Below are positions 21,589-29,490 of a DNA stretch of 64,000 nucleotides, one piece after another. The stretch spans positions 576,001-640,000 of the forward strand of contig OY970178.1 of assembly GCA_963707915.1 (NCBI GenBank), given 5' to 3'. A program made the translations under genes and the position numbers. Origin of the DNA: Candidatus Eiseniibacteriota bacterium. Lineage in GTDB: Bacteria > Eisenbacteria > RBG-16-71-46. Numbering within the stretch: position 1 is the first letter of the stretch; each line of letters begins with the position of its first letter. The notes below the pieces were generated by a model. The model was not told the DNA's origin, made no database searches, and was given only the letters and a program-made list of their open reading frames with translations.

Positions 21589-21975
21589 GTGATCCGCCGG
21601 CCCCGTCCCACCGCCGGAGCGGACCCCATCGTCCTGCTGAAGGCCGCGGCGCGCGCGGCGCTCGCCAAGAAGGCGCACGACCTCGTGGCGCTCGACCTGC
21701 GGGGCCTCGACGCGGTCTGCGACGGGTTCCTGCTGTGCTCGGCGTCGAGCGACGTGCAGGTCAAGGCGGTGGCGGAGAGCATCGAGGAGGCGCTGCGGGA
21801 GCAGGGCCTGCGCCCCTGGCACGTCGAGGGGCTGCAGGGGCGTCGCTGGGTGCTGCTCGACTACGTGGGCGTCGTGATCCACGTGTTCCACGAGAAGACC
21901 CGGGAGTACTACCTGCTCGACCGGCTCTGGGGCGACGCGAGGAGCGTGGATCTTGGTCTGGAAGGAACTGACTGA
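21589..21975 (+). CDS. rsfS: Ribosome silencing factor
   Basis: KKAHD, QVKAVA, EG....WVLLDY..VVIHVF....REYY.LDRLW.DA. Confidence 0.93.
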   Translation: MIRRPRPTAGADPIVLLKAAARAALAKKAHDLVALDLRGLDAVCDGFLLCSASSDVQVKAVAESIEEALREQGLRPWHVEGLQGRRWVLLDYVGVVIHVFHEKTREYYLLDRLWGDARSVDLGLEGTD

Positions 21976-23707
21976 GGGCCTGGACGCCGCGTTGCGCGGG
22001 ACGGGACTCCACACTCCCGAGCGCATGGCGCGGCTCGAACTCTCCATCCCGCGCGAAAGCGCGCACGGGGACTGGACCACCAACCTCGCGCTGTTGATCG
22101 CCAGGGAGGTCGGGCGGCCGCCCCGCGCGGTGGCCGAGGCCCTGGCGGCGGCCTTCCCGCGCGACCCGGCGTTGTTCGCGAGCGTCGAGGTCGCGGGCCC
22201 GGGCTTCCTCAACTTCCGCTACAGCGAGGCGTTCCTCGACCGCCTGCCCGGGCACGTCCTGGATTCGGGTGGGGGGTTCGGCACGAGCGTGGGCGGCGGC
22301 GGGGCGCGCGTGCTGGTGGAGTACGTGAGCGCGAACCCGACCGGGCCCCTGAACATCGTGAGCGCGCGCGCCGCCGCGGTGGGCGCGACGCTGGTGCGGT
22401 TGCTGCGGGCGACCGGGCACGACGCGGCGGGCGAGTTCTACGTCAACGACGCGGGCCGCCAGGTGGACCTGCTCGGCCAGTCGGTGGCCGCGCGCTTCGC
22501 CGAGGCCGCGGGGCTCGACCGCGCGTTCCCGGCGGGGGGCTACGAGGGCGAGTACGTGCGCGATATCGCCGCGGCGTTGCCGCCGCAGGATGCGCGCGCG
22601 GCGCTGGACGCAGCCGCGGGGGCGGCGTGGTTCCGCGACCAGGCGCTGGACCAGATGGTGCGCGAGCAGCGCCGCGACCTCGACGAGTACGGCGCGGAGT
22701 TCGCGCGTTGGTTCCGCGAGTCCGAGCTCCACCGTTCCGGGGACGTGGCGGCGACGCTGGCCGAGCTCGAGGCGCGCGGCATGACCTACCGTGCGCGGCT
22801 TCCCGAGGTGGACCGGACCCCGGAAGGCGTCGGGGCGGAGGGCCCGGCGGCCGCTGCCGGGGAGCTGGAGGAGGCGACGTACCTGCGCACCGGCCGCTTC
22901 GGCGACGACAAGGACCGGGTGATCGTGCGCAGCGACGGCACGCCGACCTACCTGCTCCCGGATCTCGCCTACCATCGCGACAAGCGGGGCCGCGGCTTCG
23001 GGGTCGCGATCGACCTCTGGGGGCCCGACCACCACGCCTACGTCACCACCATGAAGGCGGCGCTCGCCGCGCTGGGGGTCGAGGACGGGTTCCTCGAGGT
23101 GCTGATCGTCCAACAGGTGAACCTCTGGGAGACCGGTGCCGACGGCCGGCGGGAGCAGGTCAAGATGAGCAAGCGGCGCGGGCGGATCATCACGCTGCGC
23201 GACCTGGTCGACGACATCGGGGCCGAGTGCGCGCGGTTCTTCTTCCTGATGCGCTCCACCAACGCCCACCTCGACTTCGACCTGGACGTGGCGCGCCGGC
23301 AGAACGACGAGAACCCGGCCTTCTACGTGCAGTACGCGCACGCGCGCATCGCCTCGATCCTGCGCTACGCGGCCGAGCGTGGCCTGCGGCCGGCGGACGG
23401 GGCCACGCTGCGGCTCACGGTCCCGGAAGAGGTGGCGCTGGTGCGGCGCCTGGCCGTCTACCCGGAGCTGGTGCGTGGGGCGGCGGCGGCGCGCGAGCCG
23501 CACCGCCTGCCCGCCTACCTGGTCGAGACGGCGGCCGAGTTCCACCGCTTCTACCACGCCTGCCGGGTCGTGGGGGAGGACGCGGGCGTGAGCCGCGGGC
23601 GGCTGCTGATCGCCGAGGCGGCCCGCGTCGTGCTGGCGAACGGGCTCGCGCTGATGGGTGTTTCGGCCCCCGAGCGCATGGAACGCGCCGCGGAGGTCCC
23701 CGCGTGA
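21953..23707 (+). CDS. argS: Arginine--tRNA ligase
   Basis: HGD..TN, GPGFLN, VEYVSANPTGPL, KMSKR, NP.FYVQYAHARI, MGVSAPERM. Confidence 0.95.
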   Translation: MVWKELTEGLDAALRGTGLHTPERMARLELSIPRESAHGDWTTNLALLIAREVGRPPRAVAEALAAAFPRDPALFASVEVAGPGFLNFRYSEAFLDRLPGHVLDSGGGFGTSVGGGGARVLVEYVSANPTGPLNIVSARAAAVGATLVRLLRATGHDAAGEFYVNDAGRQVDLLGQSVAARFAEAAGLDRAFPAGGYEGEYVRDIAAALPPQDARAALDAAAGAAWFRDQALDQMVREQRRDLDEYGAEFARWFRESELHRSGDVAATLAELEARGMTYRARLPEVDRTPEGVGAEGPAAAAGELEEATYLRTGRFGDDKDRVIVRSDGTPTYLLPDLAYHRDKRGRGFGVAIDLWGPDHHAYVTTMKAALAALGVEDGFLEVLIVQQVNLWETGADGRREQVKMSKRRGRIITLRDLVDDIGAECARFFFLMRSTNAHLDFDLDVARRQNDENPAFYVQYAHARIASILRYAAERGLRPADGATLRLTVPEEVALVRRLAVYPELVRGAAAAREPHRLPAYLVETAAEFHRFYHACRVVGEDAGVSRGRLLIAEAARVVLANGLALMGVSAPERMERAAEVPA

Positions 23708-24633
23708 GCGCCGCGCCGGAGATCCTGGTGGTGGGGTCGGTCGCGCTCGACTCGGTGCGCACGCCGTACGGCGAGGTGGTCGAGGCGCTGGGCGGATCGG
23801 CGTCGTACTTCTCGCTCTCGGCGAGCCGGTTCGCCCCGGTGAGCATGGTCGCCGTGGTCGGCGAGGACTTCCCGCCCGAGCACCGCGCGCTCTTCGAGGC
23901 CCGCGGCATCGACCTGTCCGGCCTGGAGACCAGCCCGGGAAGGACCTTCCGCTGGCGGGGCGAATACGGCCCGGAGCTGGCGCACGCGCACACGCTCGAG
24001 ACCCAGTTGAACGTCTTCTCGACCTTCCACCCGCGGCTCGAGGAGCAGCACCGCGAGTGTCCGTACGTCTTCCTCGCCAACATCGACCCCGAACTGCAGC
24101 TCGAAGTGCTCCAGCAGATGAAGCGGCCCCGGTTCACGCTCAGCGACACCATGGACTACTGGATCGCGCGCAAGCCGGAGCTCGTGCTGGAGGTGCTGCG
24201 GCGGGTGGACGTGGCGCTGCTGAACGAGGAGGAGGCGCGGGCGCTGGCGGGGGAGAGCCTGCTGGTGCGGGCGGCCGACCGCCTGCTCGAGCAGGGCGCG
24301 AAGTCCGTCATCATCAAGAAGGGCGAGCACGGGGCCCTGTTCCGCACGGCCGGGGAGCGCTTCATCATCCCCGCGTTCCCGGTGGACGCGATCCGGGACC
24401 CCACCGGGGCCGGCGACTCGTTCGCCGGCGGCTTCCTGGGCTGGGTGGCGCGGTGCGGTCGGACCGAGGGGGGCATGCTCCAGCAGGCGATGGCCTGCGG
24501 GACGACCATGGCGTCCCTGGCCATCGAGGATTTCAGCCCGAGGCGGCTGGCCGAGGCGGGCTCGGACGAGATCGCGCGGCGCGTGGCCCTGCTGCACCGC
24601 ATGGTGCACTTCGACCTGGTGCCCCTCTCCTAG
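23704..24633 (+). CDS. PfkB-family carbohydrate/nucleoside kinase
   Basis: GSVALDSV, GGSASY, KKGEHGA, DPTGAGDSFAGG. Confidence 0.92.
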   Translation: MSAAPEILVVGSVALDSVRTPYGEVVEALGGSASYFSLSASRFAPVSMVAVVGEDFPPEHRALFEARGIDLSGLETSPGRTFRWRGEYGPELAHAHTLETQLNVFSTFHPRLEEQHRECPYVFLANIDPELQLEVLQQMKRPRFTLSDTMDYWIARKPELVLEVLRRVDVALLNEEEARALAGESLLVRAADRLLEQGAKSVIIKKGEHGALFRTAGERFIIPAFPVDAIRDPTGAGDSFAGGFLGWVARCGRTEGGMLQQAMACGTTMASLAIEDFSPRRLAEAGSDEIARRVALLHRMVHFDLVPLS

Positions 24634-24711
24634 GCCTTCGACGGCCGCGGGTTAGACGTCCCTTCTCACGGTGGGCGCGAAGCGCGCCGACCGTGGCGAT
24701 GCCGAGGAGCC

Positions 24712-24732
24712 CTGTGCTAGAATGAAGCACAG
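24712..24732 (+). promoter_or_regulatory. Extended -10 promoter (TGcTAGAAT) inside a 7-7-7 inverted repeat (putative operator)
   Basis: CTGTGCT-agaatga-AGCACAG perfect palindrome overlapping TAGAAT (24718-24723). Confidence 0.65.
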
Positions 24733-24762
24733 TCCCCTCATCCGAAGGGAAGGAGACCAGCG

Positions 24763-25491
24763 GTGGAAGACACGCGGATGTCATGGAAGACGGACGCCGA
24801 GCAGGGGATCCGTGGCCTGCCGGACGTCGAGGACGCGAAGATCCTCGTGGAGGCCGGCGAGATCCGCGAGGTCCACGTCATTTCGTCGGCACGCAAGCCG
24901 GCGAAGCTCATCGTCAAGGACGTGGTCGGCCTGATCTGGACCCGCTACAACCGGCGCATCGACCACCGCATCGTCGGCGTGGTGCGCGTCCGGTCGCAGG
25001 CGGACTCGGCCGCGAAACCCGAGCCCGTGAGCGTGCTCGAGGAGGCCGCGCCGGCGCCGCCGGACGCCAGCCGCGTCCGCTTCGGGAGCGTCAACCTCTA
25101 CATGGACGGCGCGCGCGGCCAGGCGCAGGTGGAATTGCGCTGGAAGGGCATGCTGCGCATGGGAAGCGCCTCCGGCTGGTGCTCGCGGCAGGGGTCGCAC
25201 CGCCTGGTGGCGGCCGCCACGCTGACGGCGCTGCAGGAGTTCCTCGACGACGACGTCGCCCTCGGAGTGGAGGGCGTGCACGTGGTGGGCATGGGCGGCC
25301 ACGAGATCGTGATCGTGGGCGTCACGCTGCTCACGCACCGGCAGGAGAAGCTCCTGACCGGCTGTTGCACGGTGGGCCGCGATCTCCCCCAGGCGGTCGT
25401 CCTGGCCTCCCTTTCAGCCTTGAATCGCGTGATCGGCGGCCTGAAGACGAAGGAGCCGATCGAGTACGTCTTGAGACCGGCATCGACCTAG
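24763..25491 (+). CDS. Conserved hypothetical protein; C-terminal half resembles the LeuA allosteric regulatory domain
   Basis: AAGGAG SD; IREVHV..RKPAKLIVKD..IDHRIV N-domain; C-domain ..G.A.G..LVAAATLTAL...G....D...AVVLASLSALNR. Confidence 0.8.
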   Translation: MEDTRMSWKTDAEQGIRGLPDVEDAKILVEAGEIREVHVISSARKPAKLIVKDVVGLIWTRYNRRIDHRIVGVVRVRSQADSAAKPEPVSVLEEAAPAPPDASRVRFGSVNLYMDGARGQAQVELRWKGMLRMGSASGWCSRQGSHRLVAAATLTALQEFLDDDVALGVEGVHVVGMGGHEIVIVGVTLLTHRQEKLLTGCCTVGRDLPQAVVLASLSALNRVIGGLKTKEPIEYVLRPAST

Positions 25492-25593
25492 GAGCCAGCG
25501 GAGCGACAAGACAATCGAGAAGCGAAGCGAAGCCGCCTGTCGGGAAGCTGTTCGTACCCGCAGAGTCCCATGCCAAGTAAGGAGGTGGGCTTC

Positions 25594-25644
25594 GTGCTCT
25601 TTATCCTCGAGCTCTTGGAGTTCTTCGGCCGCGCGGGCTGGTAA
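25594..25644 (+). CDS. 16-aa small peptide MLFILELLEFFGRAGW (24 aa if ATG 25570 is used)
   Basis: TAAGGAGGT SD at 25578-25586, 7 nt before GTG; TAA stop; below ORF-track cutoff. Confidence 0.75.
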   Translation: MLFILELLEFFGRAGW

Positions 25645-25710
25645 CCTAGTCCCGTACGTCCGGACCTAGGAAGTGACCTCCGAAGTGGATGCCGGTCTCT
25701 GCATCTTCAC
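25645..25710 (+). promoter_or_regulatory. Two hairpins between peptide gene and HD-GYP gene
   Basis: CCTAGTCC...GGAcCTAGG (25645-25670) and GATGC-cggtctct-GCATC (25688-25705). Confidence 0.45.
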
Positions 25711-25749
25711 GCATGCGGAAGCCCACCCGCCCCCGATGATCGACCTCGC

Positions 25750-27075
25750 ATGAAAGACTCGCCGGTCCCGACCCACCCGCGCGCGTTCCGGCTCTACTAC
25801 GCGCTCGTGGTGCTGGCCGCAGGCGCCTTCTTCGTGCTGGCCACGCCCACGGCGGGGGCGCCGCGGCTGGTGGCCCTGGGCGTCGTCCTGGTGCTGATGG
25901 TCGTGAGCGAGGCCCGCCCGGTGCCGCTCCCGAGCGGCGGCTACGCCACCGGCAGTGCCGTGCTCGACCTGGCGTCGATCATCATCCTGGGCCCGGTGTG
26001 GACCGCGTGGGTGGACCTGGCCAGCACGGTGATCGTGCAGGGCGTCCTGCTGCGCCGGCCCCTGGTGCGCGTGCTGCACAACGTGTCCATCTTCGCGCTC
26101 ACCTCGTTCGTGGCGGGCTACGCCTTCCTGGCCGCCGGGGGGCAGGTGGGCACCCTCGCGTTCCCGCGGCACATCGTGCCGCTGCTGGTGTGCGGGGGCG
26201 TCTACTTCCTCTGCAACTCGACGCTGGTCTCGACCGTGCTGGGGCTCACGGTGGGCCCCGGACCGTGGCGCATCTGGCAGCGCAACTTCCTGCAGGGGAT
26301 CCTGCACCACCTCTCCTTCGTGGCCCTCGGCACGCTGGTGGCCGTGGTCTTCTTCAGCGCGGGGCCGTGGGGCCTCGTGCTGGTGGGGATCCCGTTCCTG
26401 GTCGCACGCCACTCGTTCGGCGTCTACATGGAGATCCGCGCGGACCTCAAGGACTTCGTCCGTGCCCTGTCCGAGGTGCTCGAGGAGGTGGATCCGTACA
26501 CCCGCCACCACTCGCACCGGGTCGCGCAATACGCGGTGCTGCTGGCGCGCGGCATGCGGCTCTCGGAACGCGAGGTCGAGGAGATCGAGTACGCGGCCCT
26601 GGTGCACGACCTGGGCAAGATCGGGCCGCAGCACCAGCACATCCTGCAGAAGCCGGGCTCGCTGTCGCACGAGGAGCAGCGCACCTTGCGGGCCCACCCG
26701 GCTGCCGGGGCCGAGATCGTCGCGCGGGTCCGGGCGCTGCGGCGCTCGGCGGAGATCGTGCGCACCCACCACGAGCGGCCCGACGGCCAGGGCTACCCGC
26801 TGGGCCTGCACGCGGAGGACGTGCCGGTGGGGGCCCGCATCCTGAACGTGTCGGACGCGTTCGACGCGATGACCTCGGACCGCCCGTACCGGCGGGCGCT
26901 GTCGGTGGCGGCGGCGCTCGACGAGTTGCGGCGCGGCGAGGGCTCGCAGTTCGACCGGGCCGTGGTGGAGTGCCTGCTGCGCCTCTACGGGTCGGGACAG
27001 TTCCCGCTGATCCCGAGTCCCACGAGCGAGGACCTGCAGCTGTTGCGCCTGAAGCCGCGCGAGGCCCAGGGCTGA
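25750..27075 (+). CDS. HD-GYP cyclic-dinucleotide phosphodiesterase with N-terminal multi-TM sensor domain (MASE9-like)
   Basis: About 7 hydrophobic segments, then DPYT.HHS.RV, LVHDLGKIG, HHERPDGQGYP, DAFDAMTSDRPYR. Confidence 0.92.
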   Translation: MKDSPVPTHPRAFRLYYALVVLAAGAFFVLATPTAGAPRLVALGVVLVLMVVSEARPVPLPSGGYATGSAVLDLASIIILGPVWTAWVDLASTVIVQGVLLRRPLVRVLHNVSIFALTSFVAGYAFLAAGGQVGTLAFPRHIVPLLVCGGVYFLCNSTLVSTVLGLTVGPGPWRIWQRNFLQGILHHLSFVALGTLVAVVFFSAGPWGLVLVGIPFLVARHSFGVYMEIRADLKDFVRALSEVLEEVDPYTRHHSHRVAQYAVLLARGMRLSEREVEEIEYAALVHDLGKIGPQHQHILQKPGSLSHEEQRTLRAHPAAGAEIVARVRALRRSAEIVRTHHERPDGQGYPLGLHAEDVPVGARILNVSDAFDAMTSDRPYRRALSVAAALDELRRGEGSQFDRAVVECLLRLYGSGQFPLIPSPTSEDLQLLRLKPREAQG

Positions 27076-27328
27076 AGGACTGACGTCCGCCGGCCCGTCG
27101 CGGCCGGCGTGGCCCCCGGGAGTGAGACAGGGCGACGTGACGTGCGGCCGCTCCCCCGCGCGCCACGTCACCGAGGCACGTGCCCCCGGCGAGGCGGGCG
27201 TTCCTGCACGCGGCAGGGCGGGGCCTGGTGGCCGGGCCCGCCTGCCGGTCGGGGCGCACGGGGGACGGGGAGCCGGGGTGGCGGGCGCTGCCCGCGGCGT
27301 CCCGTGGGGCGGAGGGGAGGACGGGAGG

Positions 27329-28375
27329 ATGGAGCGCCTGCGAAGCGAACGAGATCCGGATGCGCCCGCCGCGAAGGCGGACCGCGCGGCGACGCCCGCC
27401 ATGCTGGGGGACTCGCCGGCGTGGGCGGCGGTGCGGGAGATGCTGCCGCGGGTCGCGCGCAGCGGGCTCCCGGTGGTGGTGCTGGGGGAGACCGGGACCG
27501 GCAAGGAGCTGGTGGCGAGGGCGATCCATGCGCTCTCGGCCCGTGCCGCCCAGGGGTTCGTGGCGCAGAACTGCGGCGCCACGCCCGACACGCTGATCGA
27601 GAGCGAGTTCTTCGGCCACACGCGCGGGGCCTTCACCGGGGCGGTGGCCGACCGGGCGGGGCTCTTCGAGTCGGCCGCCGGGGGCACGCTGTTCCTGGAC
27701 GAGATCGGGGACGCCAGCGCCCTGCTCCAGATGAAGCTCCTGCGCGTGCTCCAGGAGGGCGAGGCCCGGCGCGTGGGGGACACCCGCCTGCGCCGGGTGG
27801 ACGTGCGGGTGGTCTCGGCCACGCACCGCTCCCTCGAGGAGGCCGTCGCGGGCGGGAGGTTCCGGGCGGACCTCTTCTTCCGGTTGAACGCGGTCCGCGT
27901 GAGCCTGCCCCCGCTGCGGGAGCGCGGCGACGACGTCCTCGTGCTGGCGCGGCACTTCCTGGCGGGAGCCGCGGCGCAGCTGGGACAGGAGCCGCCCGTG
28001 CCGGACCCGGCGCTGGTCGACCACCTGCGCTCGTACGCCTGGCCGGGCAACGTGCGGGAGCTGGCGAACGCCTGTGCCTACGCGGTGCACGTGGGCGGAG
28101 CGCGGGAGCAGGCGGACCTGTCGCACTGGCCGGAGACGCCGTCGATGCCGGGGCCCGGCGCGCGACCGGTGACGGCGGGACTTCACGCCGAGACCCGCGC
28201 GCTCGAGGAACGCCGGCTGCGCGAGGCCCTGCAGCGGACCTGCGGGAACAAGTCGCAGGCGGCCCGTGCCCTGGGGCTCTCGCGCCAGGGGCTGCTGAAG
28301 AAGCTGCGGCGCTACGGGTTCACCAGCGCGGAGTCCGCGGCGCTCGCTCTTGACGGTGCGGGGGGCGCTCCCTAG
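27329..28375 (+). CDS. sigma54-dependent activator (bEBP) without N-terminal regulatory domain
   Basis: GETGTGKE, GAFTGA, LFLDEIG, FRADLFFRL, WPGNVREL, Fis-type HTH NKSQAARALG; GGGAGG before ATG 27329. Confidence 0.92.
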   Translation: MERLRSERDPDAPAAKADRAATPAMLGDSPAWAAVREMLPRVARSGLPVVVLGETGTGKELVARAIHALSARAAQGFVAQNCGATPDTLIESEFFGHTRGAFTGAVADRAGLFESAAGGTLFLDEIGDASALLQMKLLRVLQEGEARRVGDTRLRRVDVRVVSATHRSLEEAVAGGRFRADLFFRLNAVRVSLPPLRERGDDVLVLARHFLAGAAAQLGQEPPVPDPALVDHLRSYAWPGNVRELANACAYAVHVGGAREQADLSHWPETPSMPGPGARPVTAGLHAETRALEERRLREALQRTCGNKSQAARALGLSRQGLLKKLRRYGFTSAESAALALDGAGGAP

Positions 28376-28378
28376 AGT
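28350..28378 (+). promoter_or_regulatory. sigma70-type promoter TTGACG-N17-TAGAGT
   Basis: Hexamers at 17-nt spacing upstream of the oxidoreductase-lnt-asd run. Confidence 0.65.
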
Positions 28379-28476
28379 GCCCGTTTCGGGAGGACCGACT
28401 CGCGGGCCGCCGGCGCGCCCACCCATCGTGGGGCCGCGGGCTCGGCGGGTTCGAACCTGCAAGAGGGAGGGAATTC

Positions 28477-29490
28477 GTGGCCCGCAAGACGCTTCGTATC
28501 GGGCTGGTCGGCGTCGGCGCCGCGGCCCAGATCAACCACATCCCGGCGCTGAAGAGGGTCGAGGATTTCGAGCTGGTGGCGCTCTGCGATCGCGACGCCG
28601 AGAAGGGCGCGCGCGTGGCGCAGAAGTTCCAGGTCCCGCGATCGTACGCCCGCATCGAGGAGCTGCTCAGCGACGAGGACGTGGACGTCGTGGACCTGTG
28701 CACGCCCAACTACCTGCACGCGCCCATGGCGGTCGCGGCGCTGGAGGCCGGCAAGCACGTGTTCTGCGAGCGGCCGCTGTCGCGCAGCGCGGACGAGGCC
28801 GCGGCCATGGTGAAGGCGGCGAAGAAGCACGAGCGCGTCGTCATGTGCTCGGTGCAGCACCGCTTCCGCCCGGACGCCCAGTTGCTGCGCAAGTTCATCG
28901 AGAAGGGCGACCTCGGGGAGATCTTCTTCGTCAAGGCGGGGTGGCTGCGCCAGCGCACGCACTGGGACTCCGACGAGTGGCGCCGGCAGAAGCGGGAGTC
29001 GGGCGGCGGCGTGATCCTCGACCTCGGCTTCCAGATGCTCGACCAGGCGCTCTGGATCCTGGGCTGCCCGAAGGTGGAATCGGTGACCGCGAGCCTGCAC
29101 CGGGCCCGCAAGGGCGAGGTCGAGGACAACGCGATCGCGTTCTTCCGCCTGGCCTCCGGGGCGACCCTCACGCTCGAGGTCACCTGGGGCCTGCTGATGG
29201 AGAAGGACTTCGCTTACGTGAACCTGTTCGGCTCGGGCGGCGCGGCGCTGCTCAACCCGCTGCGGATCCACAAGGGCATGCACGGCACGCTGGTGAACGT
29301 GACCCCGCAGGTCGACACCTCGCGTTTCCAGTACAAGGCCTCGATGGAGGCGCAGTTCGCCCATTTCGCCGACGCGCTGCGCAAGGGCGGCCGGCCGATG
29401 GGCGCGGCGGAGGAGATCCTGCCCGTCATGGAGATGCTGGACGCGGTCTACCGGTCGGCCGAGCAGGGCAAGGAGGTCCGACTCGTCTAG
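28477..29490 (+). CDS. Gfo/Idh/MocA-family oxidoreductase
   Basis: IGLVGVG, CTPNYLH, AGKHVFCERP, SGGGVILDLG. Confidence 0.92.
   Translation: MARKTLRIGLVGVGAAAQINHIPALKRVEDFELVALCDRDAEKGARVAQKFQVPRSYARIEELLSDEDVDVVDLCTPNYLHAPMAVAALEAGKHVFCERPLSRSADEAAAMVKAAKKHERVVMCSVQHRFRPDAQLLRKFIEKGDLGEIFFVKAGWLRQRTHWDSDEWRRQKRESGGGVILDLGFQMLDQALWILGCPKVESVTASLHRARKGEVEDNAIAFFRLASGATLTLEVTWGLLMEKDFAYVNLFGSGGAALLNPLRIHKGMHGTLVNVTPQVDTSRFQYKASMEAQFAHFADALRKGGRPMGAAEEILPVMEMLDAVYRSAEQGKEVRLV

Follow-up and report, generated by a model that had tools for sequence, protein, structure and literature searches.

The stretch of Candidatus Eiseniibacteriota DNA analysed here (contig OY970178.1, 64,000 nt, hereafter the window) carries an open reading frame (ORF) of only 16 codons, MLFILELLEFFGRAGW, between the gene of a 242-residue hypothetical protein (hyp242) and that of a membrane HD-GYP protein with a MASE9-like N-terminus. 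This small ORF is conserved and codes for protein, its presence follows that of the MASE9-type HD-GYP gene and not that of hyp242, and its Shine-Dalgarno (SD) sequence and start codon are sequestered in a predicted, conserved 13-bp helix with an upstream anti-SD strand. We propose that the small ORF and its structured leader form a cis-acting, translation-dependent gate on expression of the downstream HD-GYP gene, a reading that seems to us plausible if slightly short of probable. A preliminary description of the locus had listed the 242-residue ORF, the SD-led tiny ORF, the HD-GYP protein and a short sigma-54 activator (bacterial enhancer-binding protein, bEBP), and all four are found where it placed them. 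It had taken the peptide for the ligand or modulator of the HD-GYP sensor domain and hyp242 for a partner in the same module.

The small ORF follows a perfect SD sequence, AAGGAGGTG (25579-25587), whose GGAGG core stands 8 nt from the GTG start, and the heptamer GGAGGTG is invariant across all 20 loci of the window's family. Counting an SD-led ORF with the tail G-[K/R]-[A/G/S]-G-W-stop as present, we found it in 39 of the 48 related genomes examined, namely in 20/20 family loci, in 7/8 loci at the order or class level and in 12/20 loci of ten further families. Its length varies from 11 to about 50 codons across genomes; throughout the relatives the N-terminal part of the peptide is hydrophobic or amphipathic, and the hydrophobic character is retained despite nucleotide divergence. 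Substitutions follow the reading frame. Over the last 13 codons of the 20 family sequences the entropies at the three codon positions are 0.81, 0.35 and 1.05, position 2 being the least variable, and the ratio of non-synonymous to synonymous polymorphism (pN/pS) is 0.56 in frame, the two other frames giving 0.96 and 2.6. In the tail, the basic residue alternates between CGN and AAR/AGA codons, which argues for selection at the amino-acid level, and the final two sense codons hardly vary at any of their three positions. The combination of a conserved hydrophobic helix with a basic-small-Gly-Trp tail points to selection on the peptide itself. The preliminary description had suggested scanning homologous loci for SD-led ORFs ending in G/A-x-W; such ORFs recur in these loci far more often than chance would allow, and together with the coding pattern of substitutions they bear out the small ORF as a real, conserved gene. 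The window's own peptide has 16 residues, three of them Glu.

The coding sequence shows two further peculiarities. At three loci (L039, L040 and L050, the last at L050:3319-3441) the small ORF extends to 37-50 codons and encodes one hydrophobic N-terminal helix followed by two to three tandem copies of the Trp-ending tail, a layout that resembles that of multi-core peptide precursors. The stop codons of the 20 family ORFs (L001-L020) are TAA in 13 cases, TAG in seven and TGA in none. TGA would be expected to be common in so GC-rich a genome, and RNA pairing, or the release factor that acts here, may constrain the choice of stop codon.

The presence of the small ORF coincides with that of an orthologous HD-GYP gene. 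Among the 48 genomes, which are kin and so do not provide independent counts, both are present in 38 and both absent in eight, the small ORF stands alone in one (L054) and the HD-GYP gene alone in one (L037). By family, 11 have both and four have neither. The two genes also stay together where the gene order is broken: in L058, where a 479-residue gene separates hyp242 from the HD-GYP gene, the small ORF is 1.9 kb away from hyp242 but stays upstream of the HD-GYP gene at a distance of 76 nt, and it has a AGCGAAGCG-type leader. In 5/5 tested genomes in which no HD-GYP gene adjoins hyp242, a full-length orthologue was not found elsewhere; the best matches to the one query used cover the catalytic domain only and are paralogues. 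Four of these five genomes have no small ORF, and the fifth, G068, keeps it. Outside the phylum, in two closely related Chloroflexota records a homologous HD-GYP gene (30-31% identity) is preceded by a hydrophobic small ORF with an SD, and hyp242 is missing; these ORFs end in a Gly-Gly-x-Ala-Gly-type tail and are followed by a canonical hairpin-plus-U terminator. One unclassified metagenome-assembled genome has hyp242, a Trp-Trp-tailed ORF and an HD-GYP gene. This wider search used a generic pattern, and since only 5 of the 80 loci kept cover the membrane domain, the distribution beyond the phylum rests on very few loci. Taken together, the concordance in 46 of 48 genomes, the adjacency kept in L058 and the Chloroflexota ORFs uphold the earlier proposal of a specific tie between the small ORF and the membrane HD-GYP gene.

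Weak matches to the membrane domain only were seen in two genomes without an HD-GYP orthologue, at G068:C1:1373483-1374025 and G106:C7:742009-742695 (E 3e-8 and 4e-7). Both lie within long ORFs 5-8 kb from hyp242, in which the MASE9-like sensor domain may be joined to a different output.

The SD and start region of the small ORF are predicted to be paired. In RNAalifold consensus folds, nucleotides 25522-25528 and 25533-25538 pair with 25583-25595 to form a helix (H1) that takes up the SD and the start region; it has 13 bp in 16/16 family sequences and 10 bp in a run of 21 sequences, where it is predicted in all 21. Other families have a different SD-proximal sequence and, matching it, a different upstream strand, and single-sequence folds keep the pairing. 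A covariance model built from the family picks up the element in 10 further loci, each time where it is expected, and its match in the window (76.5 bits) is the only one in the 3.6-Mb genome. An 18-row alignment that was fitted to this model, which biases it towards structure, and of whose rows about three are probably spurious, has 85.7% of its cells paired and compensatory change in 10 of the 16 pairs. The covariation score across families on this alignment is 0.245; shuffled alignments give 0.106, with 0 of 500 as high, and slid partners give at most 0.059. A conserved helix thus overlaps the initiation region of the ORF, as in leader-ORF attenuators, with covariation across families and none within the window's own. 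That the small ORF lies inside a conserved RNA predicted to sequester its own ribosome-binding site points to a cis-regulatory role. In several relatives the stop codon of hyp242 abuts the anti-SD strand, an arrangement that would allow translational coupling; in some it directly adjoins the repeats described below.

The spacer between hyp242 and H1 contains repeated RAGCG pentamers (GAGCG, AAGCG or TAGCG). They begin at or just past the hyp242 stop, both in the window (25489-25532) and in L002-L020, L049, L050, L054 and L058, and one copy forms the outer part of the anti-SD helix. We considered a TRAP-like protein-binding array with hyp242 as its RNA-binding regulator and set this idea aside, adjacency being its sole support.

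The HD-GYP protein has a complete HD-GYP domain. Pfam HD_5 matches it at full length (123.6 bits versus a cut-off of 27.2, E 8.9e-36, profile positions 2-170 of 170), and its metal-binding and GYP residues (HSxRV, HDLGK, HHERPDGQGYP and DAFDAM) are intact by comparison with the closest solved enzymes, the 3'3'-cGAMP phosphodiesterase 5z7c and the c-di-GMP phosphodiesterase 4mcw. The match of residues 70-216 to Pfam MASE9 is marginal (25.8 bits versus a cut-off of 24.3). Within the family, orthologues are 65-93% identical. The authors who defined MASE9 suggest that its ligand is bound inside the membrane (10.1101/2021.11.05.467447).

Downstream of the small ORF lies a second conserved element. 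RNAalifold pairs the last codons of the ORF, GGCTGGTA (25636-25643), with TGCCGGTC (25690-25697) in an 8-bp helix (H2); the distal strand sits within an invariant element of 12-13 nt, which a pyrimidine-rich tract follows, and the columns TG.CGGT.TC of this 3' element are invariant in 19-21 loci. In two further families (f7 and f8) the equivalent element lies nearer the ORF and has U6-U7 directly after it, so that from its sequence it reads as a putative intrinsic terminator with the ORF end as its 5' arm. In the window H2 may be an attenuator helix.

The proposed gate would combine these two structures. By default H1 would be closed and the small ORF silent. H1 would be opened by an input, which could be ribosomes terminating at the hyp242 stop or some other factor or ligand. 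A ribosome would then translate the small ORF and reach the Gly-Trp-stop codons, where it would block the attenuator helix with the downstream element, and transcription or translation could proceed into the HD-GYP gene. The peptide could have a second role, either as an arrest peptide, through an effect of the nascent chain at termination, or as a membrane partner of the MASE9 enzyme.

Several observations weigh against the gate. Within the window's family the covariation of H1 is 0.097 versus 0.093 for shuffled alignments, with 181 of 500 shuffles as high, because the helix is almost invariant there; across families, the structural bias and the doubtful rows of the fitted alignment count in the same direction. 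H2 shows no compensatory change, and a duplex of the ORF end with the downstream 110 nt is energetically better than one with shuffled sequence in only 2 of 38 loci; in the other 36 it is no better, so that thermodynamics alone gives H2 no support in this GC-rich context. The tract after the 3' element in the window is pyrimidine-rich and not a clean U run, and consensus folding both from the 3' element to the HD-GYP start (0 pairs) and over the full leader found no conserved helix at the HD-GYP start. The 3' element could be a promoter instead of an attenuator arm. As to linkage, L037 has the HD-GYP gene with no detectable small ORF and L054 has the small ORF and no HD-GYP gene. The transcript data, finally, speak for an expressed leader as a hint only, since they consist of contigs of relatives at at least 85% likeness and may include DNA. 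Such contigs, from three metatranscriptome libraries of three studies, span the 3' end of hyp242, the leader and the small ORF. In one run (X19) an 80-nt contig at 25531-25610 has a depth of 310 versus 3-30 for the hyp242 contigs, a hint only, from contig depth, that the leader RNA may be abundant or may leave a stable fragment. The RNA contigs leave 25671-25772 uncovered, a gap without meaning as a DNA run shows the same hole, and contig ends cannot define transcript ends.

The peptide could instead work in trans, associating with the membrane as a small partner of the MASE9 domain that modulates the phosphodiesterase, the RNA structures tuning only its own synthesis. We regard this as possible but rather unlikely; it is close to the idea of the preliminary description and compatible with the cis gate. 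A trans role would account for a hydrophobic or amphipathic helix under amino-acid selection (T at codon position 2, entropy 0.35), for a basic-small-Gly-Trp tail kept through codon switches of a non-synonymous-compatible kind, for the hydrophobic helix followed by a Gly-Gly-x-Ala-Gly tail in the Chloroflexota ORFs and for the strict adjacency to a MASE9-type enzyme, and it fits the within-membrane ligand binding proposed for MASE9 (10.1101/2021.11.05.467447). With 16 residues and three Glu, however, the window's peptide has neither the length nor the low acidity of a canonical transmembrane helix, and the conserved RNA pairing of the ORF ends would be superfluous for a purely trans role. A co-fold of the 40-residue peptide of L050 with its cognate MASE9-like domain scored 0.01, which gives no answer and is evidence neither way. 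At the opposite extreme, the locus might be a purely non-coding structured RNA whose open frame is incidental. The SD region, the ORF end and the 3' element all take part in predicted pairings and the final two sense codons are nearly invariant at every position, as such a reading would have it; it is nonetheless hardly credible, since an SD, a start and an open frame persist in 39 genomes despite lengths from 11 to about 50 codons, substitutions show a three-base periodicity with pN/pS lowest in frame, the hydrophobic character survives nucleotide divergence, and no Rfam family matches at E up to 1.

The connection between the two genes can also be denied. If the small ORF and the HD-GYP gene were separate transcription units, the 3' element would be the HD-GYP promoter (its region presumably read as ECF-sigma-like boxes, -35 GGAAC-type and -10 CGGTCT-type, which we take to be the consensus forms), the small gene would be unrelated and the adjacency would reflect synteny. 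The element is indeed invariant with no significant pairing partner proven, a box resembling GAAC or GACC precedes it by about 16 nt in many loci, and gene order is strongly conserved across the region. We nevertheless consider this account improbable: the small ORF moved with the HD-GYP gene at the synteny break in L058, the two were lost together in three families, the element persists past the ORF in L054, where the HD-GYP gene is gone, U6-U7 follow it directly in f7 and f8, as in a terminator, and the putative -35 box is poorly conserved in the window's own genus. A signalling peptide, modified or exported in the manner of agrD or of a peptide made on the ribosome and modified after translation (RiPP) and sensed by the HD-GYP protein, is brought to mind by L039, L040 and L050, whose tandem C-terminal motifs stand behind one leader-like hydrophobic helix, as in multi-core precursors. 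It is very unlikely here. The neighbours argS, pfkB, hyp242, bEBP, gfo and lnt include no modifying enzyme, protease or exporter, and a scan of six neighbouring proteins found no RiPP modifying-enzyme family; the locus is core and syntenic, not a variable biosynthetic cluster, and the peptide has no recognisable signal peptide or double-glycine leader.

Beyond the cis gate we put forward, with considerable doubt, a broader idea: that the micro-ORF represents a new class of regulatory nascent or membrane peptide for MASE9-type HD-GYP enzymes, whose tail would either make the terminating ribosome pause or hold the peptide at the membrane interface, and so couple a cue to the synthesis or activity of the phosphodiesterase. 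If true, this would give MASE9 domains their first known input and add to c-di-GMP control a layer that acts through peptide and RNA and is conserved in at least two phyla. HD-GYP enzymes with membrane MASE domains are common; a micro-gene and leader that travel with one of them throughout a phylum offer a testable handle on how such enzymes are switched on. As the module spans about 250 nt, its possible cis (RNA and ribosome) and trans (peptide) roles are experimentally separable. The small ORF is also a further case of an unannotated ORF of fewer than 20 codons that can be a core gene.

The features of the locus are collected in the table below. The block is bounded by argS on one side and by gfo, lnt and asd on the other, and the order argS-pfkB-hyp242-small ORF-HD-GYP-(purM)-bEBP-gfo-lnt-asd is syntenic throughout the class. 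The preliminary description had seen here an island with its own promoter. The promoter-like sequence stands: the T.TG.TA...T columns of TGTGCTAGAAT are invariant in 10/10 aligned family loci, with the proviso that a generic sigma-70 scan did not report this extended -10. The island does not, the block being syntenic across the class. A generic promoter and terminator scan gave nothing relevant in the leader, and an Rfam scan of 24000-29000 at E up to 1 returned a single match, a spurious one to a miRNA family, inside the HD-GYP coding sequence. In one Eisenbacteria record (L071), pfkB is directly followed by the HD-GYP gene; there is no hyp242 there and no detectable small ORF in the spacer of about 470 nt.

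Features of the small-ORF locus and its neighbours (positions in the window)
Feature	Position	Strand	Remarks
argS	21953-23707		
PfkB-family kinase gene (pfkB)	23707-24633		
Promoter-like extended -10, TGTGCTAGAAT	24713..24723	+	5' of hyp242
hyp242 (242-residue ORF), two-domain cytosolic protein	24763..25491	+	
Spacer past the hyp242 stop with repeated RAGCG pentamers	25489..25532	+	From family alignments
Match of covariance model R1 (leader helix and inner hairpin)	25514..25605	+	
Anti-SD strand GCGAAGC ... CCGCCT, 5' arm of predicted helix H1	25522..25538	+	From RNAalifold
SD AAGGAGGTG and GTG start region, 3' arm of predicted helix H1	25579..25595	+	
Small ORF, 16 codons, MLFILELLEFFGRAGW	25594..25644	+	GTG start, TAA stop
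3' element GGATGCCGGTCTC, then pyrimidine-rich tract	25687..25712	+	Candidate attenuator arm or promoter
Membrane HD-GYP gene, MASE9-like N-terminus and HD-GYP, 441 residues	25750..27075	+	
Gap at the position of the relatives' purM	27076..27328	+	
Short sigma-54 activator (bEBP), AAA+ and helix-turn-helix (HTH)	27329..28375	+	ORF 27122-28375, likely ATG 27329

The gene upstream of the leader, hyp242, is core to the phylum. Homologues occur in 39/41 close relatives and in 151/201 genomes of the phylum, covering 17/18 families, the remaining family having 0/41. No Pfam or NCBIfam family matches the protein; of its 456 database homologues (E up to 0.001), the best 120 all carry either no name or the label hypothetical, and where organism names are attached they are mostly Candidatus Eisenbacteria. 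In the AlphaFold2 model (mean predicted local distance difference test, pLDDT, 84.7) a disordered Pro/Ala linker joins an N-terminal alpha-beta-beta-alpha-beta domain to a C-terminal 2x(beta-beta-beta-alpha) domain. The N-terminal arrangement is a common one, with VIA Z of about 8 to many unrelated proteins. Residues 103-225 resemble the allosteric domain of LeuA and citramalate synthase (LiCMS), with a Foldseek E of 1.5e-5 to 3fig and, for the C-terminal domain against 3f6g, a VIA Z of 9.6 and a root-mean-square deviation of 2.8 over 108 of 115 residues aligned. The protein thus shares the fold of that allosteric domain, a similarity of fold only, with no sequence-family match, and the model suggests a regulatory protein that may bind a small molecule. 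Its proposed role as partner in the module finds no backing in its distribution: in nearly every locus it is pfkB that adjoins hyp242, and families f11, f13 and f15 have hyp242 although both the small ORF and the HD-GYP gene are missing there (f9, whose contig ends, was left out of this count). Nothing functional ties it to the small ORF beyond a likely co-transcription.

The sigma-54 activator fares likewise. It has the AAA+ domain (Sigma54_activat, E 2.8e-64) and the Fis-type HTH (HTH_8, E 2.4e-10) of a bEBP, is about 340-348 residues long in the window and its relatives, and has no N-terminal sensor or receiver domain, so that it would have to be controlled in trans. A purM gene (AIR synthase) of about 1.1 kb stands between the HD-GYP gene and the bEBP gene in relatives, among them a same-genus genome at 87% identity, and in five loci of f7 and f8 no bEBP gene was found between the HD-GYP gene and gfo. 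Sigma-54 promoters carry GG at -24 and GC at -12. Allowing up to 2 mismatches, this pattern had no match at 24.6-27.3 kb, and its 11 matches in the whole window compare with 16 expected by chance. The intervening purM, the five loci and the lack of a promoter match speak against the inclusion of the bEBP in the module, as earlier proposed; hyp242 and the bEBP are conserved neighbours, neither with a specific link to it. A search of the entire 3.6-Mb single-contig assembly, which is 94.8% complete, gave no purM above the TIGR00878 cut-off, and the gene's absence may be a real loss or an assembly deletion.

We found no published description of the module in the literature, supplements not being covered, and its features can be set beside those of several known systems. 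The likeness to agrD and agrC that the preliminary description drew does not extend to a secreted signal. In the agrD-agrB-agrC-agrA system, as here, the gene of a membrane receptor directly follows a small ORF. Unlike agr, the module has no AgrB-like gene, no histidine kinase and no response regulator, and its locus is core and syntenic; an AgrB-like gene and a histidine-kinase receptor were looked for and not found among argS, pfkB, hyp242, HD-GYP, bEBP, gfo and lnt, no gene for processing or export is nearby, and the receptor is not a kinase.

Leader-ORF attenuators, such as the trp and pyrBI leaders and the erm and cat leader peptides, are a further parallel. They too have a short SD-led ORF in the 5' region of the regulated gene and helices that overlap the ORF. 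In them a ribosome on the ORF alters the downstream fold and a terminator-like element follows, features for which H2 and the 3' element are the module's candidates. The module differs in that the ORF's own SD and start are predicted to be locked in a conserved helix as well, that the peptide is conserved phylum-wide and that the target gene is a c-di-NMP phosphodiesterase; in addition, its alternative-structure logic is a proposal. A Trp-codon attenuator of the trp-leader type was considered and rejected, as conservation of the amino acids of the whole tail argues for more than codon sensing. Small membrane modulators, such as MgrB with PhoQ and KdpF with KdpABC, are likewise tiny hydrophobic peptides encoded beside a polytopic membrane signalling protein; the window's peptide, in contrast, is shorter and more acidic than a transmembrane helix, and its partner is putative. 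To our knowledge, no such small-peptide partner has been described for a MASE9 HD-GYP protein.

The tail [R/K/H]-[A/G/S]-G-W at the end of an upstream ORF also recalls the RAPP/RAGP-like ('RQH') arrest peptides SecM, ApdA and YwcI (PMC10987492, PMC10951233, PMC7897499); the variable N-terminal parts and the regulatory position are common to both (PMC10987492). The motif of those peptides is R/Q/H-A/G-P/G-P, in which Pro is reported to be crucial, the change P91A having abolished arrest in YwcI (PMC10987492). The module's tail ends in Trp-stop and not in Pro, its downstream gene is not a Sec or YidC component, and its peptide is too short to sense a translocation force; in 20/20 family loci the tail reads [R/K/H]-[A/G/S]-G-W-stop with no Pro, and lacking that crucial residue it is not a member of the RAPP/RAGP family. 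With the described MASE9-HD-GYP proteins the window's enzyme shares an integral-membrane MASE9-like N-terminus fused to HD-GYP, the match to MASE9 being marginal here; an upstream micro-ORF or RNA leader is unmentioned in the accessible part of the paper (10.1101/2021.11.05.467447).

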